From Escherichia coli (GTDB lineage Bacteria; Pseudomonadota; Gammaproteobacteria; Enterobacterales; Enterobacteriaceae): 64,000 bases of DNA. Shown one piece after another: positions 7,118-34,719 of this stretch (position 1 is the stretch's first letter; each line of letters starts with the position of its first letter). The DNA lies in the NCBI RefSeq assembly GCF_024502345.1, contig NZ_JALDNN010000001.1, one strand, 5' to 3'. Below the pieces are notes generated by a model. That model was given only the letters and a program-made list of their open reading frames with translations. It ran no database searches and was not told the origin of the DNA. Both the position numbers and the translations under genes were made by a program.

Positions 7118-7204
7118 GCCCGGATGGTGGAATCGGTAGACACAAGGGATTTAAAATCCCTCGGCGTTCGCGCTGTGTGGGTTCAAGTCCCACTCCGGGT
7201 ACCA
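7118..7204 (+). tRNA. leuZ: tRNA-Leu (anticodon UAA), long variable arm; 3' half is the integration site of the element
   Basis: 87 nt ending CCA; anticodon loop gatttTAAaatcc; T-stem carries a compensatory U-A pair relative to the displaced copy at 34590-34645. Confidence 0.9.
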
Positions 7205-8186: not shown

Positions 8187-8266
8187 TCTTCAATCCTGCC
8201 CCGTAATAAAAACACCTTCAGATATATATTATCTCCATGATATCAATCAGATACATGAGGATAAAT

Positions 8267-17030: not shown

Positions 17031-17076
17031 AGTTAACTCCGAAAAAATGCCGGGAGCTGTGTCCCGGCATAAAGAA

Positions 17077-17715
17077 TCAGGATTTAATAACATTTACTAC
17101 AGATTTGAAAATATCGGTTTTGTGTGATTCATCATCTACATGGATAAAGGAAACGAGTTTCCTGCCTGCTTTAATCAGGATACCGCGTTGCGTCTTTTCC
17201 ACAGACGGGGTAACGTGTGCAGATAACAGACAATGTTCATGTAAATGAAGAAACTTTTTTGAGGCGTAGCCGCCATGTAATCGGGCTTGAATGTCAAGAT
17301 ACATATCATCAAGAGAACCGGGTTCTCCTGATTCACTCAATACCGGATAACCCTTCTTATCAAAGAGGTTAAGGATAGATTTACTATCATGTTCGAACAG
17401 GGTAACACCGTAAATGTATTTCATTCGAAAGGTGAGGGAATCGGTGGTGTAGACCTCCTCCTGACGATTGAAATTTTTGAGACGCCTGGCTAATTCATTA
17501 AAAACAGCACGAGCAGTAGCCGTGTCCTGCAGGGTGTAGGTATAAAGTACGAAGCCATCTGTGCCGATGAGCTTTACTAAGTTGTCCATAATCGTGATAG
17601 CGAGAACTAATGCAAAGGACAGATATTTTTCATCGTTGTCTACAGCTGTGTTTGCTGCTTCAGGAAGAATGTTCAGTGCATTATTAGCATTATTTGCTGT
17701 GTTCTTAGTAACCAT
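17077..17715 (-). CDS. Hypothetical protein between the excisionase and PolB genes
   Basis: 212-aa ORF overlapping the xis stop by 11 nt; no recognisable motif. Confidence 0.5.
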   Translation of the reverse strand: MVTKNTANNANNALNILPEAANTAVDNDEKYLSFALVLAITIMDNLVKLIGTDGFVLYTYTLQDTATARAVFNELARRLKNFNRQEEVYTTDSLTFRMKYIYGVTLFEHDSKSILNLFDKKGYPVLSESGEPGSLDDMYLDIQARLHGGYASKKFLHLHEHCLLSAHVTPSVEKTQRGILIKAGRKLVSFIHVDDESHKTDIFKSVVNVIKS

Positions 17716-18055: not shown

Positions 18056-19186
18056 TCATTTTTTCGTGTCATAACTTTCTATGACCTGAGAAACCACTGC
18101 GTGCGATGTCGCTGCATTGTGAAAAGCGTAGCGACGGGTCGCCGTGAGTGAATGGTGATTTAGCAGATGGGAAGCGATTGCAATATCCCCGGTCGCCTGT
18201 AGTACCCGGGTGGCAAAGGTACGGCGCAGGTCATGCATCCGCAGGTTATCAATGTTGGCATCCCGACAAATACGGGCAAAGGTTGCACGCGGATATGCCA
18301 GAGGGCGGGCATTGTCGGTTAGTTGTGGAAAAATGTAAGTTTTGCTGAGCATCAGGTCTTGCTGGCACTGGACAACTGCAATGGCTGGAGGTGCAAGTGG
18401 GCAGGTGAAAGGGTGTCCGGACTTTGTATCAGGCAGTATGAGTTGATGCATATCCGGGTGCCAGTACTCCCATTTCAGGGTACATACCTCACCAATACGC
18501 ATCCCCGTATAAAGAGCAAGCAATATAGAATCAGCTGCCGGTGTTTGCAGCGCTGTTGCCGCGTCAATAAAGCGCGGGATTTCTGTCGCTGATAGTGTGC
18601 GATAGCGAATGTTATTTTCTTTCAGATAGCGGACATGTGACATCGGGGAATGTGTGATCCATCCAGCACGTACTGCCAGAGAGCATATTTTGGACAATAT
18701 TGCGAGGATACGGTTTACTGTTGACGGACGTAATTTTTCCCGTAAGCCAGCAGCATATTGTTCTAGTTCCCCTGCCGTGATGTCGCGAAGTTGCCGCTTG
18801 CCCCAGAACGGGCGAACGTAGAGGTTGAGTTTTGACAACTCTGACTGAGGACTCTTTTTATACAACTGCAAATCCGGTAGCCACAGGTCATTGATGGCCT
18901 GTTCCACAGTGAATCGACGGGACTGAACCGCAAGACGATTTTTATCAGCAAGCAGTTTCATCACATGCTGACGGGCATCCTCAACGCAGAGCTGAGGGAA
19001 CTGACCCAGGGTTTCATATATACGCTGATTGTTTATAGTGGCACGAAAGGCCAGCGTGATCCGATTGGGATACACCAGAGCACGCAGGTTTTGGCAGTGA
19101 ATATCACGGTATTCCTGACAACCCGTGAGGGGATGTGGAAGTTGGTGAAGTGATTTGTTGCTGAAACGCAGATCCAGAATAGGCAT
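18056..19186 (-). CDS. Second tyrosine recombinase (XerC/D-like integrase)
   Basis: 376 aa; RIGEV (R), HDLRRTFAT (HxxR), TRRYAFH (Y). Confidence 0.8.
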   Translation of the reverse strand: MPILDLRFSNKSLHQLPHPLTGCQEYRDIHCQNLRALVYPNRITLAFRATINNQRIYETLGQFPQLCVEDARQHVMKLLADKNRLAVQSRRFTVEQAINDLWLPDLQLYKKSPQSELSKLNLYVRPFWGKRQLRDITAGELEQYAAGLREKLRPSTVNRILAILSKICSLAVRAGWITHSPMSHVRYLKENNIRYRTLSATEIPRFIDAATALQTPAADSILLALYTGMRIGEVCTLKWEYWHPDMHQLILPDTKSGHPFTCPLAPPAIAVVQCQQDLMLSKTYIFPQLTDNARPLAYPRATFARICRDANIDNLRMHDLRRTFATRVLQATGDIAIASHLLNHHSLTATRRYAFHNAATSHAVVSQVIESYDTKK

Positions 19187-19329: not shown

Positions 19330-20460
19330 CTACAGTTTCATGATCTTGTTCGCTATTTTTTCGAAGTAAACCTCATTCTTAAGAAGAGTGATATTGTTTG
19401 TTTGAACACCCAGACCACTGGAGGTTGACTGGAAGTTGAGTGAACCACTTATCACTGTGGACTTTCCTGATAAAAATGAAATCAACTCCTTGGAAGATGG
19501 TGCCCACTCAGGGTTTAAGAGTAATGCAATATAGATATATGTCTTACGAAGCAATTGTTCTATATCTTTTTTATGCCCTGTAGTGTTTTGCTTACCTTTA
19601 ATGCAAATAGATTTGATTATGAACTCATCAGGGCTGGTTAAAGGCGTTTTAAACTCACTCAGTGATCCATCGTTATGAATGACTTCATAAGGCAGCATAG
19701 ATAAAATGATCAATGCAATCATTTTAGGATGATAAAGGTAGTTATCACGAATGATTTTTCCTGCCTTCATTGTATTGAGCGTTGTTTGAATAAATACAAA
19801 AAGATATTCAGAGCAAAAGTAACAAAACACAAGCCAGGATAGGTCAATGGATGGAATGTTAATATCCTTAGGTAGTTTGTTTAGCCAGTATTCAGACTTC
19901 AAAAAGGTCCTGATTTCAACAGTATATTCATGCATTTTTGCGCTGAAATCAAGCATTGCTACTTGACCTGATTGTTCCGTAACTGTGTGGTCTATAAATG
20001 TTAGTGTATTGCACATTTTATCCAGCGTGTTTTGAAAACAAGAAAGGAGTTCGGCATTATTATTACCATTAACCGCAGATGAAAGTTCAGTTTTAATAAA
20101 TGCATCCAGTAGCATACAGATTTCTTTCGGAATGACATTTTTACGGGATTGCTGTGAATAGAAATGTACTGCCAGTAAATTAAAGGCAGTGCACTCCTTT
20201 TTTAACCATTGTTCGAGCACTGGGACGTGCTGAAAAAAATTGATATGCTTAGCAGTAGATGCTGATGGAGATAGTACATGAAGAATATCTACAGCAGGCT
20301 TCATTTGCAATATTTGATCGGATTCGGTAGTCGTCATTAGTTCCAGTAATTGCTGTTCAGAAAATAGTTTAGACAGGTGATCAATGTCTTTTTGGTATTG
20401 ATTAAGTTTTGTTAAATTCCCCGGTATACGGGTTACATTGTTTTTCATTTTCTCGAACAT
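19330..20460 (-). CDS. Hypothetical protein, AT-rich, no recognisable domain
   Basis: 376-aa ORF in a low-GC block; Lys/Asn/Ile-rich. Confidence 0.5.
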   Translation of the reverse strand: MFEKMKNNVTRIPGNLTKLNQYQKDIDHLSKLFSEQQLLELMTTTESDQILQMKPAVDILHVLSPSASTAKHINFFQHVPVLEQWLKKECTAFNLLAVHFYSQQSRKNVIPKEICMLLDAFIKTELSSAVNGNNNAELLSCFQNTLDKMCNTLTFIDHTVTEQSGQVAMLDFSAKMHEYTVEIRTFLKSEYWLNKLPKDINIPSIDLSWLVFCYFCSEYLFVFIQTTLNTMKAGKIIRDNYLYHPKMIALIILSMLPYEVIHNDGSLSEFKTPLTSPDEFIIKSICIKGKQNTTGHKKDIEQLLRKTYIYIALLLNPEWAPSSKELISFLSGKSTVISGSLNFQSTSSGLGVQTNNITLLKNEVYFEKIANKIMKL

Positions 20461-20966
20461 AATTTTATCCTCGTTTGAATTATTACACTGATTTAAAAAG
20501 TAGCATGTCGTGTTAGCGAGGTAATCCTAAAACGTGAATGGCAGCAGGGGCAAGCTTGAATCTGCGTAAGGATATGGCTTGAATTTAATGGTGTAATCAG
20601 TGAGTTAGAGGCTTATAGCCATTTAAATACAATAAGTTATGATAATATATGGCGGGTGTAAATCGGTTAGTTTTTATGGTTAAAATATGAGCATTGTGAG
20701 ATTTGAGATATGATGGTTTTTAAATTACATACAAGTTACCCCTGATGATCAGTATTAATACCAGAATGATACATGCGAGCAGCACCCAATCCTGTACTAT
20801 TTATGATGGCTATACAAGGCTGAAACTTTGAGTCGTATGTTGCCAGGAGGATTAATGTCCACAAGGCCCAGATAGAATGATTTCTCAGATATTAAAGTTG
20901 AAACTTATTAACTATGTGAGAGGCTGATATTTATTCAGTCTCTCATTTGTTTTTATCGTTTTAAAG

Positions 20967-22202
20967 TTAAAAGGAAATAAATAATGCCTTCCGCCGATGA
21001 ATCAGTGTACTGATTTCTCGAAAATCAGCCTCAATACTACCAACATCACCAAAGACTTCACCACTAATCTCTCTTCGATTTTTCATGAAATTGGTGCTTA
21101 ATAAGCTTTCTTTTTTTAGTGTCACTAATTTTGGTTTTATATCGTTATAGAAATGCTTACGGCTTACCCTGATGCTATGAATCGAGTAGTAAACTGTTTT
21201 ATACATCAAAAATATAAGTAACTGGCCGAGAAGATATTCTTTTTCAATGTATTTATATTGAGAGGATTTTTCGCGTTTCGCCAGGTAGAAAACATGAGGT
21301 GCGATGATGGTGGGGATGAAATCCAGTGCTGGAGAGGTTTTGGTTTTTTCTGTTTCTCTTCCGGATTGAAGATGTTGAAGTACAGAGTATACAATGCTTA
21401 AAATTATGGCGTTACTTATATTATTAATTGCAGTTGGGTAAATATGCAGATTGCTTATCAATTCTGAAAGGCAAAGTAAAACACCAGTGATGTTGGGTTT
21501 TCTGCCGGAGATTGTGGTGCTGTTGAAAATGTGACGATTCTTACGACTTATATTGACAAGTTTATGAGTGCAGAACTCTATATGTTCGACGATTTTATCT
21601 TGACTATTTTTAATGTATTTTGAAATGTTAGTGATCCGGCCATTCAACGTTAGTTCATCAAGCAATATATCATTTTTAATATTGCGAATTTCATCGCAAT
21701 GTTCACATTGAGAAACTATCTCATGTAATACATAACTCGACGTATTGCGGGGTGACGCTGATATGTAATCTAAAATAGAAGGCTCGATTTTGATTTTTTG
21801 TTTGTATTTTTTAATGCACTGTTTGATTGTTTTTTGTAGAGTATTTGAGATGTGTTTTTTATATTCTTTTAGAAAATCTTGCTCTAAAAAGAGTGAGGAG
21901 AAGATCAACTGCTGGCGAGATAATTTAATCTCAGGCTTGATCAATTTAATCCGAAAAACTCTTCCCTCCAACTCATAGCTGAACATGGAAGATAAGTCAT
22001 AGTGGGGTGATAAATGTTCGAGTAACGACATTCGTGTATTCATTAGCCGCTTGAATTTATGGTCAGCATACATAAGTGTTTTTTTTATTTGCTCATCATA
22101 AAGTGGGCCGATAGCGCAGTTGGCAATACTCATTCTATCCGGAGACCTCCAGTCAGCAGGGGAATCACATTGACGGTCATCATTACTATCAAAGGGCATC
22201 AA
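20967..22202 (-). CDS. Hypothetical protein, AT-rich, no recognisable domain
   Basis: 411-aa ORF in a low-GC block; no Walker or nuclease motifs seen. Confidence 0.5.
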   Translation of the reverse strand: MMPFDSNDDRQCDSPADWRSPDRMSIANCAIGPLYDEQIKKTLMYADHKFKRLMNTRMSLLEHLSPHYDLSSMFSYELEGRVFRIKLIKPEIKLSRQQLIFSSLFLEQDFLKEYKKHISNTLQKTIKQCIKKYKQKIKIEPSILDYISASPRNTSSYVLHEIVSQCEHCDEIRNIKNDILLDELTLNGRITNISKYIKNSQDKIVEHIEFCTHKLVNISRKNRHIFNSTTISGRKPNITGVLLCLSELISNLHIYPTAINNISNAIILSIVYSVLQHLQSGRETEKTKTSPALDFIPTIIAPHVFYLAKREKSSQYKYIEKEYLLGQLLIFLMYKTVYYSIHSIRVSRKHFYNDIKPKLVTLKKESLLSTNFMKNRREISGEVFGDVGSIEADFREISTLIHRRKALFISF

Positions 22203-22505: not shown

Positions 22506-24029
22506 ATGAACGACAAAATCAGTCAGGACACGATCAACAAAGCCCTGTGGGCCGCGTGTGATACGTTCCGTGGCACCATCAGTGCTGATACCTATAAAGA
22601 CTTTATCCTTACCATGCTATTCCTTAAGTACATTTCGGATGTCTGGCAGGATCACTACGACGAATATAAAGTGCAATATGGTGATGAGCCGGAACTGATT
22701 GAAGCGATGATGGCGAACGAGCGCTTCGTGTTGCCGAAAAGCGCCAGTTTCTATGCGTTGTACGAGCGACGTCATGAGCCGGGCAACGGTGAGCGTATCG
22801 ATCAGGCGCTGCATGCGATTGAAGAAGCCAACGGCACCAAACTGAAAGATGCCGGGAAAAGTGTCTTCCAGGATATTTCGTTTAACACTGACCGTCTGGG
22901 CGAAGAAAAACAGAAGAACACCATCCTGCGTCAGTTGCTGGAAGACTTTGCCGGTGAAGATCTTAACCTGAAGCCAAGCCGTGTCGGTACGCTGGACGTT
23001 ATCGGTAATGCTTACGAATATCTGATCAAAAACTTTGCTGCCAGCGGTGGGCAGAAAGCCGGGGAATTCTATACCCCACCGGAAGTTTCGGATCTCATCG
23101 CTGAACTGCTTGATCCTCAACCCGGTGATACAATCTGCGACCCGGCCTGTGGTTCCGGTTCGTTGCTAATGAAGTGCGGGCGTAAAATTGTCTCAGGACA
23201 TGATAGCCGCAACTATGCGTTGTTCGGTCAGGAAGCGATTGGCTCCACGTGGTCGCTGGCGAAAATGAACATGTTCCTGCACGGCGAAGATAACCACAAA
23301 ATCGAGTGGGGCGATACCATTCGTAACCCGAAGTTGTTGGATAAAAACGGCGACCTGATGCTGTTTGATATCGTGACCGCAAACCCACCGTTCAGCCTGG
23401 ATAAGTGGGGCCATGACGAGGCCGAGAATGATAAGTTTGGGCGTTTCCGTCGCGGTGTACCGCCGAAGACTAAAGGGGATTACGCCTTTATCTCGCATAT
23501 GATCGAAACCCTGAAACCGGGAACGGGTCGTATGGGCGTAGTGGTGCCGCACGGTGTGCTGTTCCGTGGCTCCAGCGAAGGCAAAATTCGTCAGAAGCTG
23601 ATTGATGAAAACCTACTCGATGCGGTGATTGGCCTGCCTGAAAAACTGTTCTACGGTACGGGTATTCCTGCTGCAATTCTGATTTTTAAAAAGCAGAAAG
23701 TGGATGACAAGGTGCTGTTTATCGACGCCAGCCGTGAATTTAAGGCAGGTAAAAACCAGAACCAGCTCAGCGCAGAAAACATCGAGAAAATCGTCAAGAC
23801 CTACCGTGATGGCGATAGCGTCGAGAAATATGCCTACCTTGCCAGCCTGAAGGAGATTCAGGACAACGATTACAACCTCAATATTCCGCGCTATGTCGAT
23901 ACCTTTGAAGAAGAAGAAGATATCGATTTACTTGCCGTTCGTGCTGAGCGGGAGGAATTGAAAGCGGAACTGGCGAAATTGGAAACGCAGATGGCGGGTT
24001 ATCTGGAGGAGCTGGGTTATGGTGCCTAA
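22506..24029 (+). CDS. hsdM: Type I restriction-modification N6-adenine DNA methyltransferase subunit
   Basis: 507 aa; SAM-binding DPACGSGSLL and catalytic NPPF (VTANPPFSL). Confidence 0.9.
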   Translation: MNDKISQDTINKALWAACDTFRGTISADTYKDFILTMLFLKYISDVWQDHYDEYKVQYGDEPELIEAMMANERFVLPKSASFYALYERRHEPGNGERIDQALHAIEEANGTKLKDAGKSVFQDISFNTDRLGEEKQKNTILRQLLEDFAGEDLNLKPSRVGTLDVIGNAYEYLIKNFAASGGQKAGEFYTPPEVSDLIAELLDPQPGDTICDPACGSGSLLMKCGRKIVSGHDSRNYALFGQEAIGSTWSLAKMNMFLHGEDNHKIEWGDTIRNPKLLDKNGDLMLFDIVTANPPFSLDKWGHDEAENDKFGRFRRGVPPKTKGDYAFISHMIETLKPGTGRMGVVVPHGVLFRGSSEGKIRQKLIDENLLDAVIGLPEKLFYGTGIPAAILIFKKQKVDDKVLFIDASREFKAGKNQNQLSAENIEKIVKTYRDGDSVEKYAYLASLKEIQDNDYNLNIPRYVDTFEEEEDIDLLAVRAEREELKAELAKLETQMAGYLEELGYGA

Positions 24030-25266
24030 GGGGTGGAAACGAGTACCGATTAAGGATGTGTGCGAGTCTATAATCGATTGCGTAAATAAAACAGCTCCAG
24101 TTGTTGATTATGAAACTCCCTTTAAGATGATTCGTACCACGAATGTACGTAATGGAAGGGTTAATACTGAAGACGTCAGATATGTGACTGAAGACACTTA
24201 CCTGCAATGGGTTCGACGCGGAAAACCGCAAGTAGGTGATATCATCTTTACACGTGAAGCACCTGTAGGAGAAGCAGGTGTCCTGCAAGATGCTGAAGGT
24301 ATTTTCCTCGGGCAAAGAACGATGATGTATCGAGCTGATACCTGCCTTTCAGATAACTATTTCTTGTTCTACTCGTTATCAAGTCCCTTCTGCCAGAAAC
24401 AAATTGAAGATTTTAGCAATGGCGGTACTGTAGCTCATATGAGAGTTCCAGATTGCGGTGAGATATTGATCAATCTACCGCCTTTCCTCGAACAAAAGAA
24501 AATCGCCCAAATCCTGTCAACCTGGGATAAGGCGATTTCGGTGACGGAAAAGCTTCTCACCAACAGCCAGCAGCAGAAAAAAGCCCTGATGCAGCAATTG
24601 CTTACTGGGAAGAAACGCTTGCTGGATGAGAATGGGACAAGGTTTTCTGAAACTTGGAAATTATATGCCTTATCGAAATTATTTCAGAGAGTTACGACTA
24701 AAAACAATGGAAAAAGCAACAATGTTGTAACCATTTCTGGACAACATGGTTTGATTAAACAGGAAGACTTTTTCAAGAAAACAGTCGCATCAGATACCCT
24801 TGATGGTTATTTCTTATTAAAAAAAGGGCAGTTTGCTTACAATAAAAGTTACTCTAATGGTTATCCGATGGGTGCAATAAAAAGATTAAATCGATATCCA
24901 GAGGGAGTAGTAACAACTCTGTATATATGTTTTGAACTTACTACACCCAAAAAATCATGTGGTGACTATTGGGAGCATTATTTTGAGTCAGGGCTTTTGA
25001 ATAACAGTTTGTCTCAAATTGCTCATGAAGGTGGACGGGCTCATGGCTTGCTAAATGTAAAACCTTCGGACTTCTTTTCATTAAAAGTTGCGGTTCCTGG
25101 CTTTGAAGAGCAACAAAAAATCGCATTAGTTCTGTCCGCTGCCGACACCGAAATCTCCACACTGGAGAAAAAACTCGCCTGCCTGAAAGACGAGAAGAAA
25201 GCCTTGATGCAGCAACTGCTGACCGGGAAACGTCGGGTGAAAGTGGATGAGGCGGTTGCCGTATGA
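24019..25266 (+). CDS. hsdS: Type I restriction-modification specificity subunit
   Basis: 415 aa; two target-recognition halves each followed by the conserved repeat KKALMQQLLTGK(K/R)R; overlaps hsdM stop. Confidence 0.88.
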   Translation: MVPKGWKRVPIKDVCESIIDCVNKTAPVVDYETPFKMIRTTNVRNGRVNTEDVRYVTEDTYLQWVRRGKPQVGDIIFTREAPVGEAGVLQDAEGIFLGQRTMMYRADTCLSDNYFLFYSLSSPFCQKQIEDFSNGGTVAHMRVPDCGEILINLPPFLEQKKIAQILSTWDKAISVTEKLLTNSQQQKKALMQQLLTGKKRLLDENGTRFSETWKLYALSKLFQRVTTKNNGKSNNVVTISGQHGLIKQEDFFKKTVASDTLDGYFLLKKGQFAYNKSYSNGYPMGAIKRLNRYPEGVVTTLYICFELTTPKKSCGDYWEHYFESGLLNNSLSQIAHEGGRAHGLLNVKPSDFFSLKVAVPGFEEQQKIALVLSAADTEISTLEKKLACLKDEKKALMQQLLTGKRRVKVDEAVAV

Positions 25267-25946
25267 AACTGACGAAAAGCGGTCCACTGACTGACCGGGA
25301 AATCGACTGGCTGGAAGAAATATTAATGAAGTATGGAATGGATGATTCTGTACTCTGTTTCTCTGAGCTGGATGGATTGCTGACGGCGATTTTATCAGGT
25401 CCAAATATGGTTTCACCCAATATCTGGCTGAGTGCTATTTGGGGAGGAGGCGATTATCATCCGAAATGGTCATCTGAGAGAGAGATGGAGCGTTTTGTCA
25501 GTCTGTGTTTTCAGCATATGAACGATATCGCTGGTTGCCTTTATGACGCCCCTGAACTGTTTGAGCCGATTTTCAATGAGCGTGAGGTAAAGGGGGAAAA
25601 ATATACCATTGTGGAAGAGTGGTGTTTTGGTTATATGAAAGGAAAGTCACTGGATGACTGGTCTGGTCTTCCCGGTGAGTTACGGCCTTCTCTGGAAGTG
25701 ATCGCTCTTCATGGCGTGGAGAAGAATTTTCCTGTACTTGAGAAAATGACCGGAGAGCAGTTTGAGAAAAGTATTTCCCTTATTCAGCCTGCTGCACTGG
25801 CACTTTATCAGTACTGGTTGTCAGTGAGAATGTCAGAGGCATCATCCCGGCCTGTTCCAGTGAAGGGGGCAGAAAACATGCCCGGGCGAAATGACCCGTG
25901 TCCGTGTGGCAGCGGTAAAAAATTTAAGAAGTGCTGTCTGCATTGA
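25263..25946 (+). CDS. YecA-like (UPF0149) protein with C-terminal SEC-C metal-binding motif, embedded between hsdS and hsdR
   Basis: 227 aa; C-terminus [20 protein letters not shown]; alignable along its length with chromosomal YecA at 34841-35506. Confidence 0.75.
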   Translation: MKLTKSGPLTDREIDWLEEILMKYGMDDSVLCFSELDGLLTAILSGPNMVSPNIWLSAIWGGGDYHPKWSSEREMERFVSLCFQHMNDIAGCLYDAPELFEPIFNEREVKGEKYTIVEEWCFGYMKGKSLDDWSGLPGELRPSLEVIALHGVEKNFPVLEKMTGEQFEKSISLIQPAALALYQYWLSVRMSEASSRPVPVKGAENMPGRNDPCPCGSGKKFKKCCLH

Positions 25947-25995
25947 TGAATCTTCATGTGACCAGTAGCGAGTAGCGCCAGAAAGAAAAGGATTA

Positions 25996-28900
25996 ATGAT
26001 GAACCAGACGTACACGCCAAAATTCCAGGAAGAATACAGCGCCAAAATTCCGGCACTGACGTTACTGACCAGCCTCGGCTGGACGTTTTTATCTCCGAAA
26101 CAGATTATGGATTACCGGGGCTATAAACAGGATGAGGTGGTGCTGCGTCCGGTTCTGCGTGAAGAGCTGTCGAAGCGTTCCTTTATGGCGGGTGGCAAAA
26201 CCTGCCAGTTATCGGAAAAAGCACTGGATAACCTGATATCACAGGTCTGTTCTCCGGCGCTGAATGAAGGGCTGCTCAAAGCCAATGAACGGATGTATAA
26301 CCATCTGCTCTACGGTATCGCCGTCACGGAGTTTGTCGATGGCAAGAAGGTCAACCCCACCATTGCGCTGATCGACTGGGAACATCCGGAAAATAACCAG
26401 TTCCACTTTACTGAAGAATTTACGGTATTGCGGTCAGGTGGTGTTGAAACCCGGAGGCCAGATATTGTCTGCTTTGTTAATGGTATCCCGCTGGCTGTTA
26501 TTGAAGCGAAAAGCCCGGCTGGTCATGGCAAGAAAGGGCCAACCATTGACGAGGGGATATCCCAGAGTATCCGCAACCAGTTCAACGATGAAATCCCGCA
26601 GCTGTTTGTCTACAGCCAGTTATTACTTTCGATTAACGGTCATGACGGGCGCTACGGTACATGCCATACGCCAATGAAATTCTGGGCGGCATGGCGCGAA
26701 GAAGATATTACCGATGCGCAGATGTATGCTCTGCGCAACCATCCTTTATCGACTGAACAAATTCATGCGTTGTTTGATCATCGTCCATCAGCCGATCTCA
26801 ACTGGTACCAACAGTTAATCGCCGCCGGTGAACTGGCTGTCAGTGGACAGGACAAACTGCTCATCAGCCTGCTTTCGCCGGAACGTCTGCTGGAGATGAC
26901 CCGCTTCTTCACTCTGTTTGATAAAAAGACCGGGAAAATTGTCGCCCGCTATCAGCAGGTGTTCGGTATTAAAAGACTGCTGGAGCGCATCAGTACCCGC
27001 AGACCCGATGGGGGCAGGGAAGGTGGTGTTATCTGGCATACCACCGGCTCTGGCAAATCGTACACCATGGTGTTCCTCAGCAAGGCGCTGATTCTTCATG
27101 ACAGCCTGAAGCGGTGTCGTATCGTGGTGGTGACGGACCGTATCGATCTTGAAGAACAGCTCAGCAGTACCTTTGCATCCGGCGGCGAGTTGGCCGGGAA
27201 AAAAGACAAAGCCAATGCAATGGCGACATCCGGGCAGATGCTGGCGAAACAGATTGGCTCCGGTAAAGAACGCATCATTTTCACCCTAATCCAGAAATTT
27301 AATTCAGCGACAAAACTTCCTGAATGCGTCAATACCAGCCCCGATATCATCGTTCTGGTTGATGAAGGACACCGTAGCCAGGGTGGTGAGAACCATGTGC
27401 GAATGAAACTGGCACTGCCGAACGCCGCCTTTGTGGCATTTACTGGTACGCCATTGCTAAAAGAAGATAAGACCACCAATAAATTCGGACCGATTGTCCA
27501 CGCTTATACCATGCAGCGAGCGGTAGAAGATAAAGCCGTTACACCTTTGCTGTATGAAGAACGTATTCCCGACCTTGAGGTTAACGATCGGGCAATAGAT
27601 GCCTGGTTTGATCGTATTACCGATGGGTTAAGCGAAGCGCAAAAAGCCGACCTGAAGCGTAAATATGCCCGTAAAGGTGAGGTTTATAGTGCAGATGATC
27701 GCATCCGTCTGATCGCACTCGATATCGCCACGCACTTCTCGAAGAATATTGATGAGGGACTGAAAGGCCAGCTTGCCTGCGACAGCAAGATTTCCGCCAT
27801 CAAATATAAAAAGTATCTTGATGAAGCCGGGTTGTTTGAGTCAGCTGTAGTTATCAGCCCGCCGGATACCCGGGAAGGGAATACCGAAGTGGATGAAAGC
27901 AAACTGCCGGAAGTGACGAAATGGTGGAAGGATAATGTCGGCACGCAGGATGAGTCTGTGTATACCCGTAATGTCATCAGTCGTTTCGATACCGATGAGA
28001 AGCTCAAATTGCTGATAGTCGTTGATAAACTGCTCACCGGGTTTGATGAGCCGAAGAATACCGTGCTGTATATCGACAAGCCGCTTAAGTCCCACAACCT
28101 TATCCAGGCGATTGCGCGGGTGAACCGACTGCATCCACTAAAAAAGTTCGGTCTGCTGATTGATTATCGCGGTATTCTGGCTGAGCTGGACACGACTATC
28201 GGCAAATATCAGGACCTCGCCTCCCGAACTCAGGGCGGATACGATATCAAAGATATTGACGGGCTGTACAGCGCCATGAGCTCTGAATACAAGCGCCTGC
28301 CGCATCTGTATAACCAGCTGTGGGCCATATTTGCCGGTGTTAAAAACAAAAATGATACTGAGCAGTTACGTGCGGTACTGGTGCCTAAAATGGAAGAACG
28401 TGACGGAGAGATGGTCGATATCCATCAGAAAACCCGTGATGATTTCTTCGAGGCGTTAACGGCCTTTGCCGGATGCCTGAAAGTGGCACTGCAGTCCGCT
28501 ACCTTCTTCACCGACAAGAGCTTTACGGAACAAGACCGAAATCTCTATAAAGAAACCGTAAAACAGATGTCCAGCCTGCGCCAGTGGGCGATGCAGGTAA
28601 GTGGAGAGCAGGTCAATTATGACGACTACGCTGAGCAGGTGAAAAAACTGCTGGATAAGCATGTCACCGGCGTTGAAGTTCGTGAACCGGATGGCGTGTA
28701 TGAAGTCGGTAAAATGGGCAAGAGCGAAAAGCCCGAAGAGTGGGACAACAATAAAACCCGCAATGAAACCGACATCATTAAAACCCGTGTGACAAAGATG
28801 ATTGAGCAGGAATTGCGTGATGACCCGTATGCTCAGGAGGCATTTTCAAAACTCCTGCGTATGGCTATCGAAGAGGCTGAAAAACTGTTTGACCATCCGC

Positions 28901-29283
28901 TGAAACAGTACCTTTTGTTCCGTGAATTTGAAGAACAGGTTGAAGCCCGTAAGCTCAGCGATATCCCGGATGCACTGGCGGTAAACAAGCATGCTCAGGC
29001 GTATTACGGTGTATTTAAAAAAGAGCTACCTGAGGTTTTTGCGGTAAACGACGTTCAGGTGCAGGATAAGTGGACGAAGCTGGCTTTTGAAGTGGACAAC
29101 ATTATCGTCAAAGCGGTGGCAGAAAACTCCCTGAACCCCCAGGACATTGAGAAAGTCGTTAAGACAAGTCTGCTACCACTGCTGTTTACGGCCTGCCGGG
29201 AAATTGGTGCCGGAATGAATCAGGTTAACCGTATTGTTGAAACCATCATCCAGATACTGCGCGTTGGTTTGATGAAATCATGA
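25996..29283 (+). CDS. hsdR: Type I restriction enzyme R subunit (nuclease/helicase)
   Basis: 1095 aa; helicase motif I TTGSGKS, motif II DEGHRSQ, N-terminal nuclease region. Confidence 0.9.
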   Translation: MMNQTYTPKFQEEYSAKIPALTLLTSLGWTFLSPKQIMDYRGYKQDEVVLRPVLREELSKRSFMAGGKTCQLSEKALDNLISQVCSPALNEGLLKANERMYNHLLYGIAVTEFVDGKKVNPTIALIDWEHPENNQFHFTEEFTVLRSGGVETRRPDIVCFVNGIPLAVIEAKSPAGHGKKGPTIDEGISQSIRNQFNDEIPQLFVYSQLLLSINGHDGRYGTCHTPMKFWAAWREEDITDAQMYALRNHPLSTEQIHALFDHRPSADLNWYQQLIAAGELAVSGQDKLLISLLSPERLLEMTRFFTLFDKKTGKIVARYQQVFGIKRLLERISTRRPDGGREGGVIWHTTGSGKSYTMVFLSKALILHDSLKRCRIVVVTDRIDLEEQLSSTFASGGELAGKKDKANAMATSGQMLAKQIGSGKERIIFTLIQKFNSATKLPECVNTSPDIIVLVDEGHRSQGGENHVRMKLALPNAAFVAFTGTPLLKEDKTTNKFGPIVHAYTMQRAVEDKAVTPLLYEERIPDLEVNDRAIDAWFDRITDGLSEAQKADLKRKYARKGEVYSADDRIRLIALDIATHFSKNIDEGLKGQLACDSKISAIKYKKYLDEAGLFESAVVISPPDTREGNTEVDESKLPEVTKWWKDNVGTQDESVYTRNVISRFDTDEKLKLLIVVDKLLTGFDEPKNTVLYIDKPLKSHNLIQAIARVNRLHPLKKFGLLIDYRGILAELDTTIGKYQDLASRTQGGYDIKDIDGLYSAMSSEYKRLPHLYNQLWAIFAGVKNKNDTEQLRAVLVPKMEERDGEMVDIHQKTRDDFFEALTAFAGCLKVALQSATFFTDKSFTEQDRNLYKETVKQMSSLRQWAMQVSGEQVNYDDYAEQVKKLLDKHVTGVEVREPDGVYEVGKMGKSEKPEEWDNNKTRNETDIIKTRVTKMIEQELRDDPYAQEAFSKLLRMAIEEAEKLFDHPLKQYLLFREFEEQVEARKLSDIPDALAVNKHAQAYYGVFKKELPEVFAVNDVQVQDKWTKLAFEVDNIIVKAVAENSLNPQDIEKVVKTSLLPLLFTACREIGAGMNQVNRIVETIIQILRVGLMKS

Positions 29284-30035
29284 GTGAAAAAGAATCGCCA
29301 TCAATGAAAGCGTTACGCATTGTCTATGGTGATGAGGTCATCGTCGTACAGTGTGTTCCGCGTCAGGTCGTAAAGGGCAGGGTGCTCATTAAGGTTTATC
29401 CGGACTGCCGGGTTGTGGCCTCTGTACCGCCTGAAACACCGGAGCACGAGGTATTGTCTGCGCTGAAAAAACGTGGGCGCTGGATATACCAGCAACTGCG
29501 TGATTTCAGGGAGCAACAGATACACATTGTTCCGCGTCAGTATGTCAGCGGAGAAAGCCATTATTATCTCGGTAAGCAATATCAGTTGAAAGTGACAGAA
29601 GACGCTACTGTGCCGCAACGAGTGAAAATGTTGCGTGGACGTCTGGAAGTGACTGTCAGACACAAATCGGCAGAAAAGATTAAAGCCTTGCTGGCTGAAT
29701 GGTATCGGGAACGTGCCAGAGATGTTTTTCAGCGCAGGCTTGATTTACTGATTCCGCAGACCCTTTGGGTCAGTGAGCGTCCTCCGATACGTCTGCGGGC
29801 GATGCAAACGCAATGGGGCAACTGTTCAGCAAAAGGCTGTCTGACCCTGAATCCATGGCTGGTTAAGGCATCTTCAGAATGTATCGATTATGTTTTGCTA
29901 CATGAGTTATGCCATGTGGCTGAGCACAACCACAGCGAGGAGTTTTACCGTCTGATGGGACAGGTTATGCCGGGCTGGGAAAAGGTTAAGAAGCGACTGG
30001 ATGGTATGGCTGGGATGTTGTTGGCAGATATGTAA
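29280..30035 (+). CDS. DUF45/YgjP-like predicted zinc metallohydrolase (M48/WLM-like)
   Basis: 251 aa; HELCHVAEHNHSEEF metal-binding signature; start overlaps hsdR stop. Confidence 0.7.
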   Translation: MSEKESPSMKALRIVYGDEVIVVQCVPRQVVKGRVLIKVYPDCRVVASVPPETPEHEVLSALKKRGRWIYQQLRDFREQQIHIVPRQYVSGESHYYLGKQYQLKVTEDATVPQRVKMLRGRLEVTVRHKSAEKIKALLAEWYRERARDVFQRRLDLLIPQTLWVSERPPIRLRAMQTQWGNCSAKGCLTLNPWLVKASSECIDYVLLHELCHVAEHNHSEEFYRLMGQVMPGWEKVKKRLDGMAGMLLADM

Positions 30036-30093
30036 CTTATCAATATGAGTTCTTAAGAGTTTGGTCAGTCTCGTTAATGCAGGGAGTATAATA

Positions 30094-31932
30094 ATGAGTA
30101 AGTTAGATAATAAAATTGAAGCACGCCATCGTAATTTGTTTGATGTTCTAAATGCGCAAAAATATACCGTTGATTACTTTCAGCGCGAGTATAGCTGGGG
30201 TGAGAAACATATTGAAGAGTTGGTTACAGACTTAACATCTGCGTTTCTCAATGAATACACAGTCGGTGATTCTCGGGAGCAGGGTGAAAACTACAATAAT
30301 TATTACTTAGGACCATTTGTTGTGAGTAGTAAAGATGGAAAGCGGAGTATTATTGATGGTCAGCAACGACTGACTTCATTAACTTTATTTCTAATTTACC
30401 TCCATAATCTTCAGAAAGAACTTAAATATGAAGAGAAAATAGAATCAATGATTTTCTCCGAGCTACGTGGCAGCAAATCATTCAATATAGTAGTTGAAGA
30501 CAGAATTCCTTGCATGGAAGCATTGTTTAATTTTGGTAGCTATAGTTTAGTTGATGGGGATGATGAGTCAACCCATAACATGGTGGAGAGATATCAGAAT
30601 ATCACAGATGCTTTTCCTGATGAGTTAAAAGGTCAGGCTTTTCCTTTTTTTATCGACTGGCTTAAGTATAACGTTATTATGGTTGAGATAGTCGCCTATT
30701 CAGATGAAAACGCATATACCATCTTTGAGACTATGAATGACCGAGGATTGAATCTTACTCCGTCCGAAATGCTTAAAGGTTTTTTACTTTCACGTTTTCA
30801 TCAGGGAGATAAACGCCAAAAGGCAAATGAACTCTGGAAAAAAGCGATGATGGATTTAAAAAGCTATGACAAAGATGAAGACCAACGTTTTTTCCAGTCA
30901 TGGTTGCGTGCTCAATATGCTGATACAATACGCCCGGGTAAAGCTGGTTCAAAAAATGAAGACTTTGAAAAAATAGGTACGCGTTTTCATAGCTGGGTTA
31001 GAGATAATCTTCAGGCGGTGGGATTGGACCCAGATAATGGTGAGACATTCGAACGATTTATACAAAAAAACTTTTTGTTTTATTTGAATGCCTATACACA
31101 AATACTGAATGCTGAGAGAGTATTAACGCACCAACTGGAATATGTATTTTATATCCACCATTGGGGTATTGCACCTACTTTAAGTTTTCCTTTGATGTTG
31201 GCTCCATTAAATGTAGGTGACAGTCCTGAGGCTGTGATAGCCAAAATAAACCTAGTGGCTCGCTATATTGAAACGTTTGTTGTTCGTCGTTCTGTTAATT
31301 TCCGAAAATTCTCTGCCAGTTCTATTCGTTACACAATGTACAGTCTTGTTAAAGAGATTCGTGGTAAAAGTTTTGAAGAATTAAAAGATTTATTATCTAA
31401 GAAGTTATCCGAAATGCCAGATACTTTTGCAGGAATGGAAGAGTTTCGTCTCCATGGTCAAAACTATCGTTTTGTGAAGTTTTTGCTTTCTCGTATAACT
31501 GCGTGGGTTGAGCAACAAGCCGGAATGAGTACAACCTTCATTACATATTATCAGCCAGAACACGGTAAGCCATTTGAAGTCGAGCATATTTGGGCCGATA
31601 AATATGAACGTTACTCTGATGAGTTTGAACAAGAGCACGAATTTAACAATTACAGAAATCGCTTAGGTGATTTGGTTTTATTACCTAGAGGCTCAAACCA
31701 GTCATATGGTGATTTGTGTTACGATCAAAAGCAACCTCATTACATCAAAGAGAATCTCCTGGCTAAATCGTTATGCCCATTGGCATATATGAATAACCCT
31801 AATTTCAATCAGTTGAGAAATGTATTCGGATTGCCTTTCAAACCACATGATTCATTTAAAAAACAAGATGTCGATGAACGACAGTCTTTGTATAAAATAA
31901 TTTGTGAGAATATTTGGGGCCATAATTTATAG
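30094..31932 (+). CDS. DUF262 + DUF1524 protein (GmrSD-family-like, predicted type IV restriction endonuclease)
   Basis: N-terminal IIDGQQRLTSL (DUF262 DGQQR motif), C-terminal FEVEHIWA His-Me finger-like (DUF1524); RBS ggag before ATG 30094. Confidence 0.7.
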   Translation: MSKLDNKIEARHRNLFDVLNAQKYTVDYFQREYSWGEKHIEELVTDLTSAFLNEYTVGDSREQGENYNNYYLGPFVVSSKDGKRSIIDGQQRLTSLTLFLIYLHNLQKELKYEEKIESMIFSELRGSKSFNIVVEDRIPCMEALFNFGSYSLVDGDDESTHNMVERYQNITDAFPDELKGQAFPFFIDWLKYNVIMVEIVAYSDENAYTIFETMNDRGLNLTPSEMLKGFLLSRFHQGDKRQKANELWKKAMMDLKSYDKDEDQRFFQSWLRAQYADTIRPGKAGSKNEDFEKIGTRFHSWVRDNLQAVGLDPDNGETFERFIQKNFLFYLNAYTQILNAERVLTHQLEYVFYIHHWGIAPTLSFPLMLAPLNVGDSPEAVIAKINLVARYIETFVVRRSVNFRKFSASSIRYTMYSLVKEIRGKSFEELKDLLSKKLSEMPDTFAGMEEFRLHGQNYRFVKFLLSRITAWVEQQAGMSTTFITYYQPEHGKPFEVEHIWADKYERYSDEFEQEHEFNNYRNRLGDLVLLPRGSNQSYGDLCYDQKQPHYIKENLLAKSLCPLAYMNNPNFNQLRNVFGLPFKPHDSFKKQDVDERQSLYKIICENIWGHNL

Positions 31933-31990: not shown

Positions 31991-33118
31991 TTGCGTTCTG
32001 AAACGTTTTTTGTCAAATTTATTGAACAACTGAAAGGTATTTCGGTTGAGGATGATGTTGAATTCAATTTTTTTGAATTGGGTGGTTCCGGATATCTCGA
32101 AAATCCAACTACGGATTTGATGGCTTTGTTTATGGGAGCCCAGAAAATGGTGCCGCCATGGTTGCTCAAAGCATTGCTATGTTGCCTAGATGATTCCCTC
32201 GATGTTGATGAAATTGATTTCACTTCTCTGGAGCTAATGAGAGAGGCCCGAACAGAAGATGGGAAATATATTGATATTCTTATCAGACATGATGAATTCA
32301 TTATAGGTATTGAGCATAAAGTTCTGGCTGATACATATAATCCTTTTCCCAGCTATGTAAGTCTCATTGATAGTTACGGCGGCAACAATCAAAAACTATT
32401 TCGCTGTATATTAAAGCCTGACGGTAACAGCGCTAAAGGCGTAGACGGTTGGCAACTGATCAATTATTCACTGCTGCTGGAAACCGCCATTCGACGTCTG
32501 GGGTTAGAGATGATGAATCAAGAGTTCAGCAAGTGGACTTTTTTTTATCAGGAGTTTTTAAGTCATCTTAAAAAATTGAGTGAGGTTAGTATGGATAAGG
32601 TATCTGATAAAAATGTGGAGTTTGTCACTGAAAATTTCACAGCTTTGATAAAATCGGTTCAATTGCTGGAAATGTACCAAAATGCTATCACCGAGGAAGC
32701 TAAATCGGTTGTCTCAGAGGTATTGCCTGATATTCATATTGCAACAGGTATTAATAACTGGAAGGGTTACTATAAAGCAATTCATCTGATGCCGGGATGC
32801 TGGGGGCAAGGTAAAACAGGAATTACGTTAGTTTATCGCCCTTCAGAGGATGGTCGAGATGAAGCTGAGTTCTATGTATATGGATGGATACATTCAGATG
32901 ATTACCCTGAAGTTAATGCACTAAAAGAAGAAATAAGAGTTGCTTTAAGTGCTGGAGATTTCATTCCAACAGCTAGCCCTGAGGACTATGAAGTATCAAT
33001 TACTGGGAAGGGGAAAGTGCTTGAACTGAGTTTTTGGGGGAATACGAGAAGCAAAAAAGATGCACTGGTTCTTCTTAAGGATATGACTAAGTGGATGGAC
33101 TCAAAAATAAGAACATAA
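31991..33118 (+). CDS. Hypothetical protein with candidate PD-(D/E)xK nuclease motif; TTG start uncertain
   Basis: 375 aa; DILIRHDEFIIGIEHK fits D...ExK; RBS aaaggagg upstream. Confidence 0.4.
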   Translation: MRSETFFVKFIEQLKGISVEDDVEFNFFELGGSGYLENPTTDLMALFMGAQKMVPPWLLKALLCCLDDSLDVDEIDFTSLELMREARTEDGKYIDILIRHDEFIIGIEHKVLADTYNPFPSYVSLIDSYGGNNQKLFRCILKPDGNSAKGVDGWQLINYSLLLETAIRRLGLEMMNQEFSKWTFFYQEFLSHLKKLSEVSMDKVSDKNVEFVTENFTALIKSVQLLEMYQNAITEEAKSVVSEVLPDIHIATGINNWKGYYKAIHLMPGCWGQGKTGITLVYRPSEDGRDEAEFYVYGWIHSDDYPEVNALKEEIRVALSAGDFIPTASPEDYEVSITGKGKVLELSFWGNTRSKKDALVLLKDMTKWMDSKIRT

Positions 33119-34589: not shown

Positions 34590-34719
34590 ATTTAAAATCC
34601 CTCGGCGTTCGCGCTGTGCGGGTTCAAGTCCCGCTCCGGGTACCATGGGAAAGATAAGAATAAAATCAAAGCAATAAGCAGTGTCGTGAAACCACCTTCG
34701 GGTGGTTTTTTTGTGCCTG
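34590..34719 (+). repeat. attR: displaced 3' half of tRNA-Leu plus terminator (direct repeat of 7149-7276)
   Basis: Contains tRNA 3' 56 nt ending CCA at 34645, with no 5' half upstream; terminator hairpin at 34691-34712. Confidence 0.85.

Follow-up and report, generated by a model that had tools for sequence, protein, structure and literature searches.

Internal direct repeats and reassortment of target-recognition domains in a pipolin-borne hsdS gene of Escherichia coli

Introduction

Type I restriction-modification (R-M) systems can change specificity within the gene for the specificity (S) subunit, hsdS. In the type IC systems EcoR124I/EcoR124II and EcoDXXI, the change comes about when 12-bp tandem repeats in the central conserved region (CR) undergo unequal crossing-over, and phase-variable hsdS shufflons are known in Streptococcus pneumoniae (SpnD39III) and Mycoplasma pulmonis. 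StySQ and StySJ derive from the type IA parents StySB and StySP. The two conserved helices of solved S subunits form an antiparallel coiled coil, which sets how far apart the two DNA-recognition domains lie. The crossing-over that gave StySQ and StySJ lies in a 130-nt near-identical stretch encoding the first dimerization helix (Loenen et al. 2014, PMC3874165). In Helicobacter pylori, where domain movement (DoMo) has been described, group 2 S genes have x and y repeat pairs that flank both target-recognition domains (TRDs), and TRDs that are common to both positions; variable central repeats of 12 bp also occur, as do one-TRD and three-TRD alleles (Furuta et al. 2011, PMC3077401).

Here we describe an hsdS gene within a 64-kb stretch of Escherichia coli DNA, hereafter the window, which carries two internal direct repeats. 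It is very probable that each of these repeats is the 3' end of one of the two 43-codon CRs of an ordinary two-TRD HsdS, and that specificity changes by inter-allelic cassette replacement.

Results

The hsdS gene, its operon and the island that carries it

The window gene is a canonical two-TRD type I HsdS by homology, fold and its hsdM and hsdR neighbours (Table 1). The system has the gene order hsdM-hsdS-yecA-like-hsdR, with an 11-nt overlap between the hsdM 3' end and the hsdS start. Methylase_S (Pfam PF01420) mapped to HsdS residues 3-179 (5.4e-19), TRD2 being missed by Pfam, and the PADLOC Specificity_I profile spans residues 1-409 (1e-113). The AlphaFold model (pLDDT 84 overall) contains long helices at residues 156-195 and 362-402 (pLDDT ~90), and full-length HsdS matched the folds of the Methanocaldococcus jannaschii S subunit (1YF2; TM 0.71), the EcoKI S model (2Y7C; TM 0.70), PacII S and EcoR124I S. 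Both CRs are 43 aa long in 118 of the 118 splittable proteins from a set of 120 database HsdS proteins picked by full-length score, and in 19 listed DNA alleles. The conserved linker LLDENG forms the start of TRD2, the GC content of which is 0.32-0.39 versus roughly 0.45-0.55 for the operon, and VKVDEAVA forms the HsdS tail. Two minus-strand ORFs (24941-25420 and 25126-25416) overlap the repeats and were taken as chance ORFs within the well-supported hsdS.

The system belongs to the defence genes that an E. coli pipolin carries as cargo; the core and cargo of this pipolin were matched against a published description (PMC11551731). An att-like direct repeat bounds the island (7175-7204 and 34616-34645), and a region 98.6% identical to it is annotated in RefSeq with a type-B DNA polymerase, with DUF2787 and with two integrases. 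On the basis of that annotation and the described pipolin gene content, 14430-17093 is a putative piPolB, for which no Pfam or NCBIfam match was found.

Table 1 Features of the hsdS locus and its surroundings in the window.
Feature	Position	Strand	Evidence or remarks
Pipolin-type island, ~27.4 kb, at tRNA-Leu(TAA), carries the R-M system	7175-34645	.	att-like direct repeat, integrases, RefSeq annotation
hsdM, type I methyltransferase subunit, 507 aa	22506-24029	+	ORF; Pfam N6_Mtase 8e-107, HsdM_N 1.3e-21; PADLOC MTase_I 5e-133
PD4-like tract: last ~150 nt of hsdM, TRD1 and most of CR1	23870-24572	+	Informative sites
hsdS, two-TRD specificity subunit, 415 aa, TRD1-CR1-TRD2-CR2-tail	24019-25266	+	ORF, Pfam, PADLOC, AlphaFold
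TRD1, variable cassette, aa 1-157	24019-24489	+	Rare among E. coli genomes; several TRD2 partners
CR1, central conserved region, aa 158-200, 43 aa, first long helix, inter-allelic crossover zone	24490-24618	+	CR length, DNA identity, model helix, crossovers
Crossover interval, PD4-like left / H10407-like right of the window allele	24573-24605	+	Inside CR1 and repeat copy 1
Repeat copy 1, 3' end of CR1, encodes KKALMQQLLTGK	24575-24611	+	Repeat search, degenerate 35-mer scan
TRD2, variable cassette, aa 201-363, AT-rich	24619-25107	+	E. coli genome comparison; 27 TRD1 partner types
CR2, C-terminal conserved region, aa 364-406, 43 aa, second long helix	25108-25236	+	CR length, DNA identity, model helix
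Repeat copy 2, 3' end of CR2, encodes KKALMQQLLTGK	25193-25229	+	Repeat search, degenerate 35-mer scan
yecA-like gene, UPF0149 + SEC-C, PADLOC PDC-S12	25263-25946	+	Start overlaps hsdS stop (ATGA)
hsdR, 1095 aa	25996-29283	+	Pfam HSDR_N, SWI2_SNF2, T1R_D3-like; PADLOC REase_I score 1375
YgjP-like metallopeptidase gene	29280-30035	+	Pfam YgjP-like 6.7e-58; overlaps hsdR stop

The two repeats exceed chance and follow from a common peptide

An initial annotation had described two segments, at about 24571-24620 and 25193-25235, that encode the same conserved spacer after each TRD and are about 80% identical in DNA. This description is borne out: the coordinates are correct to a few bases, the copies are the 3' ends of CR1 and CR2, and KKALMQQLLTGK ends both. 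The repeats are direct, in frame and 37 nt long, with 86% identity (32/37) and a start-to-start distance of 618 nt (206 codons). Identity is 76% over the 42 nt encoding the 14-aa peptide, which reads KKALMQQLLTGKKR in copy 1 (aa 187-200, nt 24577-24618) and KKALMQQLLTGKRR in copy 2 (aa 393-406, nt 25195-25236), 72% over the 50-nt span first annotated and 60% over the full 129-nt conserved region, so that 80% is a fair figure (72-86% for spans of 37-50 nt). The longest exact run common to the two copies is 11 nt (24587-24597), and a weaker in-register pair (24490-24518 and 25108-25136) is 72% identical.

The repeat pair exceeds chance. None of 200 codon-shuffled hsdS genes reached 32/37 (maximum 25), and a degenerate 35-mer found exactly these two hsdS sites in 64 kb versus 0 in 100 shuffles. 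The nucleotide identity of the copies is fully accounted for by the common peptide: over the 12 shared codons, 30/36 nt are identical versus 29.0±1.8 expected (P = 0.39 for 30 or more) for two independent encodings of one peptide drawn from operon codon usage, and 6 of the 11 codons able to vary differ between the copies. The M. jannaschii S subunit has the motif EEQK.IA...KK.LM..LLTGK twice, and the likeness of the copies reflects a pseudo-dimeric HsdS, in which two helices have the same terminal motif.

TRDs are reassorted among alleles

The initial annotation proposed a comparison of hsdS alleles for recombinant TRD combinations, and many were found. A survey of 165 related hsdS alleles distinguished 33 types of TRD1 and 18 of TRD2, which occur in 62 combinations, and the TRD1-TRD2 graph contains 15 independent four-gamete-type cycles. 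The locus family is present in 533 of 5,426 complete E. coli genomes (about 10%), only 5 of the 5,426 carrying the window TRD1 (at least 99.8% identity) and 27 the window TRD2 (99.4-100% identity); the two genome sets are disjoint. Partners of the window TRD1 type belong to 6 different TRD2 types and those of the window TRD2 type to 27 TRD1 types, and, in both directions, TRDs at 99.3-100% identity were found next to partners that are unrelated. The cycles and the disjoint genome sets are the opposite of a family in which all alleles are collinear and show no domain exchange, the pattern named beforehand as counting against recombination. Related hsdS alleles thus do swap TRDs, each as an independent cassette.

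Between alleles, DNA identity averages 91.7% for CR1-CR1 and 85.9% for CR2-CR2. The inter-allelic CR is favoured as the substrate because the median longest exact run in CR1 between alleles is 38 nt versus 11 nt between the window's own copies; reported values of the minimal efficient processing segment (MEPS) are 25-90 bp (PMC9650840). The allele comparison indicates that the substrate is each CR paired with the same CR of another allele, CR1 with CR1.

Crossovers are spread across and beyond the conserved regions

The informative sites of the window allele consist of 37 consecutive PD4-type sites (23870-24572) followed by 82 consecutive H10407-type sites (24606-26356). A crossover is placed between the last PD4-not-H10407 site (24572) and the first H10407-not-PD4 site (24606), because the informative sites flip from one type to the other there, in a comparison of three sequences (window, PD4 and H10407) that cannot separate the parental from the recombinant allele. 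The window allele has 2 mismatches to L001 over 23906-24605, and 100% identity over the last 149 nt of hsdM is confined to alleles that share the TRD1. In other allele pairs the switch lies anywhere between CR1 position 23 and a point past position 128, or within CR2 or yecA. The yecA-side segment (25237-25600) has two haplotypes that assort independently of TRD2, the 5' third of the yecA-like gene belonging to the right-hand recombination zone, and independent assortment also holds among the haplotypes of four segments, namely the 3' end of hsdM, CR1, CR2 and the 5' end of yecA. Crossovers thus occur throughout CR1, within the final ~150 nt of hsdM, and in CR2 and the 5' end of yecA, with no focus on the 37-nt repeat.

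These data bear on the proposal that the repeats are purely structural and that the TRDs became diverse by diverging or through replacement of the whole gene, without any recombination within hsdS. The match between the copies' nucleotide identity and the expectation from a common peptide agrees with it, as does a motif conservation that reaches archaea. Against it stand near-identical TRDs beside unrelated partners, the 15 cycles among 165 alleles, informative sites that split perfectly and switch within CR1, and the independent assortment of the four flanking and conserved segments. The proposal is very improbable and is refuted as a complete account; its structural half is kept in inter-allelic cassette replacement.

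Exchange between the two copies and site-specific inversion

Were the internal repeats to recombine with each other, within the gene or by unequal inter-allelic exchange, a TRD would be deleted, duplicated or moved between positions 1 and 2, as in DoMo. The copies are direct, in frame and flank TRD2, domain movement in the group 2 S genes of H. pylori runs through repeats of 37 bp and 49 bp (PMC3077401), dimers of half-size S subunits can be active (PMC3874165, PMC3077401), and some other alleles of the family have exact runs of 19-22 nt between internal copies, close to the lower MEPS bound. However, the longest run in the window is just the 11 nt noted above, and only a 'y'-type repeat is present, with no 'x' repeat upstream of each TRD: the hsdM 3' end precedes TRD1, and CR1 precedes TRD2. 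Among the 165 alleles, 0 of 51 TRD types occur at both positions (best cross-position identity 34%), and all 165 have exactly two conserved regions, by which count no one-TRD or three-TRD derivatives were found; for the three-TRD joint, this count in the 165 alleles was the sole check. CR1 and CR2 retain distinct signatures in the 19 alleles examined, and CR1-CR2 identity is 58.2% within versus 58.0% between alleles, with no sign of concerted evolution. A pattern scan of metagenomes, of modest power, found 0 deletion junctions versus 36 normal junctions. A BLAST search of E. coli genomes with a chimeric deletion joint speaks neither for nor against a deletion, since its top matches were two-piece with normal spans in 30/30 cases, the pieces being joined from normal alleles. 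We regard copy-to-copy recombination as very unlikely. The initial annotation had taken the repeats as substrates for specificity-changing recombination, and this holds only in part: one crossover does fall inside copy 1 (24573-24605), but the internal pair is not the substrate (CR1-CR2 identity 58%, 11-nt run) and crossovers spread beyond the 37-nt repeat.

At low frequency, and likeliest in alleles with runs of 19-22 nt, copy-to-copy recombination could yield a half-size single-TRD S subunit that would dimerise and recognize a palindromic target. We give this scenario very little credence; if true, such events would give the pipolin-borne system an additional, unobserved route to new specificities.

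The repeats might instead serve a site-specific recombinase, which would make hsdS a phase-variable shufflon with a nearby tyrosine recombinase as the invertase. Such a recombinase gene is encoded ~3 kb upstream on the minus strand (18056-19186), but it is part of the conserved pipolin core. Only two repeat copies occur in the 64 kb, both direct and both within hsdS; inverted repeats within hsdS are short and imperfect; and hsdS alleles are stable, at 99-100% identity between strains and species. A tblastn search of the 64-kb window found no other hsdS fragments or silent TRD cassettes, and on this absence we reject site-specific inversion as extremely improbable.

A scheme for inter-allelic cassette replacement

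In the favoured scheme of inter-allelic cassette replacement, each CR forms a ~40-residue helix, closed by KKALMQQLLTGK(K/R)R, which leads into the next segment. HsdS being internally duplicated and pseudo-dimeric, the same structural constraint acts twice and makes the copies alike without DNA exchange. After horizontal transfer, RecA-type homologous recombination would align the resident locus with another allele over three segments conserved between alleles: the 3' end of hsdM; CR1 with the LLDENG linker; and CR2 with the tail and the 5' end of yecA. TRD1 or TRD2 would then be swapped out as a unit. The window allele bears the mark of one such event, the crossover in 24573-24605. The data show the gene's anatomy and fold, the reassortment among alleles, where the breakpoints lie and that the copies do not exchange with each other; we infer that TRD exchange depends on RecA, that the helices of the window HsdS pack as a coiled coil and contact HsdM, and that each new TRD combination has a hybrid recognition sequence.

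Discussion

A freely reassorting library of at least 33 TRD1 and at least 18 TRD2 types means that strains with the same island may differ in methylome and in their barrier to incoming DNA. For this hsdS family, recognition-sequence prediction should type TRDs separately rather than whole hsdS alleles, and the mapped breakpoints show the segments that travel with each TRD. Nothing here alters the accepted view of how type I specificity evolves, and the importance of the case is modest: the window hsdS is an ordinary example of the TRD reassortment already known for type I systems, which is textbook biology.

Type I families were compared for IA and IC, through PDB sequences. The window HsdS resembles type IC subunits in its TRD1-CR1-TRD2-CR2 layout with no N-terminal conserved region (PMC3874165), and EcoR124II M is a moderate match for the window HsdM (237 bits), whereas the window HsdR matches EcoR124 R over just ~220 residues (118 bits). 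Sequence search gave no match between EcoR124 S and the window HsdS, and no tandem repeats were found in the window CR1. Type IC membership was rejected on this moderate HsdM similarity, short HsdR match, missing S match and lack of tandem repeats, and spacer-length variation of the EcoR124 type on the lack of tandem repeats and the constant CR length. Type IA membership was likewise rejected, HsdM scoring 99 bits and HsdS 43 bits against EcoKI.

The best sequence and fold match was the M. jannaschii S subunit (E 4.9e-23), in which LPPLEEQK.IA...KK.LM..LLTGK follows each TRD, as in the window HsdS. It differs in being archaeal, with ~20% overall identity, and is silent on allele exchange. With H. 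pylori DoMo, the window hsdS shares a 37-nt direct repeat after each TRD and combinatorial TRDs at one locus, but the traits of group 2 were not seen in the window hsdS family, which behaves like group 1, where there is reassortment only (PMC3077401).

StySQ and StySJ differ from the window system in three ways. They belong to another type I family, as the low HsdM score against EcoKI M indicates; the window system is carried on a pipolin, with a yecA-like gene between hsdS and hsdR, versus a chromosomal hsd locus; and the events were made in the laboratory there and are deduced from natural alleles here. They share with it the variable-conserved-variable-conserved layout, a crossover stretch of ~130 nt for the first helix (129 nt in the case of CR1) and TRDs that behave like cassettes.

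TRD exchange among hsdS alleles

The locus family containing this hsdS, the type I specificity-subunit gene, is present in 533 of 5,426 complete Escherichia coli genomes. The two target-recognition domains of the window's gene occur there separately, TRD1 at 99.8% identity in 5 genomes and TRD2 at 99.4-100% identity in 27, and the two lists have no genome in common. Elsewhere, the exact TRD1+TRD2 combination recurs in E. coli, Citrobacter freundii and Enterobacter cloacae, in 7 protein clusters that match at 99-100% identity. Clustering at 90% identity of the TRDs from 165 alleles (116 database proteins, that is, the best 120 matches minus partial sequences; 19 loci from E. coli; and 30 from metagenomes) separated 33 types of TRD1 and 18 of TRD2, which pair in 62 combinations. 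The resulting TRD1-TRD2 graph contains 15 independent cycles, each a set of TRD types present in all reciprocal pairings, and TRD exchange is required because such cycles cannot arise otherwise. The 42 alleles not picked for likeness to the window's TRDs form 29 combinations of 18 x 15 types. Collinearity without exchange clearly does not describe these alleles, and the domain exchange envisaged in the initial annotation is borne out.

Some alleles have decayed. TRD1 carries frameshifts or stops in two metagenome contigs (L021 and L037), hsdM is annotated as a pseudogene in two E. coli loci, and in E. coli AH21 (locus L019) hsdM and most of hsdS are lost beside an IS5-family element.

Crossovers map to whole conserved segments

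Two E. coli strains that each share one TRD with the window locate a joint within hsdS. Against PD4 (same TRD1), there are 2 mismatches in 23906-24605 and mismatches start at 24606; against ETEC H10407 (same TRD2), mismatches continue up to 24572 and are followed by only 2 in 2,428 nt (24573-27000). At sites where these strains differ, the window equals PD4 at 37 consecutive sites (23870-24572) and H10407 at 82 consecutive sites (24606-26356), which therefore places the crossover within repeat copy 1, in the interval 24573-24605. The part of hsdM upstream of ~23870 represents a third lineage, ~92% identical to every sampled locus.

Other allele pairs sharing one TRD switch at positions 23, 65, 77, 83 and 95 of CR1, the conserved region after TRD1, and also beyond its position 128 (a conserved LLDENG linker) and within CR2, the counterpart after TRD2. 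TRD1 is accompanied by the final 149 nt of hsdM, and the hsdS tail with the yecA 5' end (25237-25600) occurs as one haplotype close to 100% and another close to 84% identical to the window; the two assort independently of TRD2. These scattered switch points and flanks therefore identify the recombination zones as whole conserved segments, each paired with its counterpart in another allele; the 37-nt repeat falls within one of these zones without being a special hotspot. Between alleles, the longest exact run in CR1 has a median of 38 nt, inside the 25-90 bp range reported for the minimal efficient processing segment (PMC9650840), whereas the longest exact run between the window's own two repeat copies, 11 nt, lies outside it.

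The repeats are ends of spacer helices

A repeat search of the window recovered the 37-nt hsdS direct repeat with 32 matches, its copies starting 618 nt (exactly 206 codons) apart, together with a weaker in-register pair (Table). None of 200 codon-shuffled hsdS versions reached 32/37 (maximum, 25), and a degenerate 35-mer matched the two repeat sites alone in the 64-kb window and nothing in 100 shuffles, so the repeat noted after each TRD is real. In-register identity is 86% over the 37-nt span, 76% over the 42 nt encoding the peptide, 72% over the 50-nt span of the initial annotation and 60% over the whole 129-nt conserved region.

This DNA similarity is no more than the peptide requires. The 12 shared codons are identical at 30 of 36 nt, the expectation for two independent encodings under operon codon usage being 29.0±1.8 nt (P(>=30)=0.39), and 6 of 11 variable codons in the repeat peptide differ between copies. 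Among 19 alleles, mean DNA identity between alleles is 91.7% for CR1 with CR1 and 85.9% for CR2 with CR2, and CR1 with CR2 averages 58.2% in the same allele and 58.0% in different alleles. Each region retains its own signature in these 19 alleles and, because no concerted evolution of CR1 and CR2 was found across them, there is no sign of sequence exchange between the two copies.

Split at the repeated motif, all 118 relatives from databases and all 19 E. coli alleles showed the layout TRD1, 43-aa CR1, TRD2, 43-aa CR2 and short tail, with the repeat forming the final third of CR1 and of CR2. An AlphaFold2 model of HsdS (mean pLDDT 84, pTM 0.72) places CR1 in a long helix at residues 156-195 and CR2 in another at 362-402, and superposes in full on solved S subunits (1YF2, TM 0.71), on an EcoKI S model (TM 0.70) and on the S subunits of PacII and EcoR124I. 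In the S subunit of Methanocaldococcus jannaschii, the same motif follows both TRDs (…EEQKQIAKIL…KKGLMHKLLT and …KKKIMELLLTGKVRV), and reviews describe the two S-subunit helices as a zipper-like pair fixing the TRD-TRD distance (PMC3874165, PMC12707154). Layout, helix model, archaeal motif and literature therefore identify the repeats as the ends of two spacer helices of a pseudo-dimeric protein.

Operon genes and family placement

The Methylase_S and PADLOC matches (a type I specificity profile spans product residues 1-409, 1e-113) and the hsdM and hsdR neighbours together identify the repeat-bearing ORF as hsdS of a type I restriction-modification operon, into which the yecA-like and YgjP-like metallopeptidase genes are translationally coupled. 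HsdM scores 323 bits with PacII M, 237 bits with EcoR124II M and 99 bits with EcoKI M, and HsdR matches EcoR124 R over only ~220 residues; judged by sequence comparison, the system is neither type IA nor type IC.

The yecA-like gene sits between hsdS and hsdR, matches the PADLOC candidate defence family PDC-S12 (3.9e-99) and is missing from one E. coli locus (L018). Its position equals that of prrC in the EcoprrI operon. Just beyond the island lies another copy, 57% identical to the first and apparently the chromosomal yecA beside tyrP. At four further E. coli loci (L013-L016; QL57EC, 0H24, RM11626-C1 and HH194M), a ~1.86-kb gene annotated 'cold shock domain-containing protein', not hsdR, follows yecA and overlaps its 3' end, and the 3' part of yecA shares only ~81% identity with the window; this gene either replaces hsdR or belongs to a different downstream module.

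In several PADLOC Specificity_I profiles, PDLC03178 and PDLC03175 among them, first-TRD positions are matched by residues ~209-401 of the window's HsdS (TRD2) and second-TRD positions by residues ~2-202 (TRD1); because of these cross-alignments, TRDs related at deep distance do occupy either position, though not inside this allele family. The GC content of TRD2 (24619-25107) is 0.32-0.39, versus 0.39-0.48 in TRD1 and ~0.45-0.55 elsewhere in the operon, which suggests that the AT-rich TRD2 cassette derived from a lower-GC donor.

Table. Features of the hsdS operon, its island and neighbouring sequence
Feature	Position	Strand	Annotation
IS903B-family (IS5-like) transposase	~2528-3496	-	
Island	7175-34645		~27.4 kb
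att-like direct repeat	7175-7204 / 34616-34645		30 nt, 2 mismatches
Tyrosine recombinase	8237-9484		Island left half
887-aa ORF	14430-17093	-	RefSeq: type-B DNA polymerase in 98.6% identical region
Tyrosine recombinase	18056-19186	-	Island left half
Two AT-rich ORFs	19330-22202	-	376 and 411 aa; directly upstream of hsdM
hsdM	22506-24029	+	N6_Mtase, HsdM_N; upstream of hsdS
hsdS	24019-25266	+	415-codon ORF; contains repeats; Pfam Methylase_S, residues 3-179
Weaker repeat pair	24490-24518 / 25108-25136		In register
Repeat copy 1	24575-24611		Peptide KKALMQQLLTGKKR (aa 187-200)
Repeat copy 2	25193-25229		Peptide KKALMQQLLTGKRR (aa 393-406)
yecA-like gene	25263-25946	+	UPF0149 + SEC-C; ATG overlaps hsdS stop codon
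hsdR	25996-29283	+	HSDR_N, SWI2/SNF2, T1R_D3; downstream of hsdS
YgjP-like metallopeptidase gene	29280-30035	+	Overlaps hsdR stop
GmrSD-like nuclease-type defence gene	30061-31932	+	PADLOC HEC-06/Orf5; 3' of type I operon
PDDEXK_4 nuclease-type defence gene	31991-33118	+	
Mrr_cat nuclease-type defence gene	33223-34404	+	
Second yecA-like copy	34841-35506	+	

A pipolin-like island carries the operon

The operon lies on an island bounded by the att-like repeat, and its insertion site is tRNA-Leu(TAA) in the glyW-cysT-leuZ cluster; core genes of E. coli (uvrC, uvrY, sdiA) make up the window flanks. The 887-aa ORF had no match in Pfam or NCBIfam, and the 98.6% identical RefSeq region also has an annotated DUF2787 protein. 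The two recombinases, together with the type-B DNA polymerase and DUF2787 protein annotated in that region, correspond to the core genes described for pipolins (PMC11551731), and by its gene content the element looks like a pipolin. Enterobacterales pipolins are reported to carry 'Type 1 RM, PDC-S12' and HEC-06 frequently, as recently exchanged defence cargo (PMC11551731), and the island's right half holds exactly Type 1 RM, PDC-S12 and HEC-06, plus PD-(D/E)XK and Mrr-type nucleases.

The 376-aa and 411-aa ORFs had no match in Pfam, PADLOC or NCBIfam; other strains of E. coli retain them beside the operon, annotated 'hypothetical protein'. Left of the tRNA cluster, the IS903B-family transposase sits among tcyN, sdiA, uvrY and uvrC, all named from the annotation of matching E. 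coli records.

Comparison with other routes of hsdS change

Recombination of the two repeat copies with each other, by deletion, duplication or the 'domain movement' of TRDs known from Helicobacter pylori S genes (PMC3077401), predicts that some TRDs are common to both positions and that one-TRD or three-TRD alleles exist; neither was found. Among the 165 alleles, no TRD type occurs at both positions (best cross-position identity, 34%), all alleles have two conserved regions with no one- or three-TRD allele found, and in the metagenome collection the DNA pattern of a deletion joint had 0 matches versus 36 for the normal joint. TRDs are exchanged allele-to-allele via the conserved regions; the two repeats are not the exchange partners. 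The initial annotation had taken the repeats as the usual substrates for recombination that changes type I specificity; domain shuffling does occur, with one joint inside a repeat, but that annotation was imprecise about the mechanism, as the two copies show no sign of exchanging sequence. Both the repeat feature and the process of TRD reassortment are already known textbook biology, and the repeat finding is for that reason of low interest.

Two other known systems are excluded: a site-specific inversion system, as the window is without another hsdS fragment or a further repeat copy, and EcoR124-type spacer-length variation, as tandem repeats are absent and CR length is constant. The H. pylori movement genes have two repeat pairs flanking each TRD, whereas the hsdS described here has one pair.
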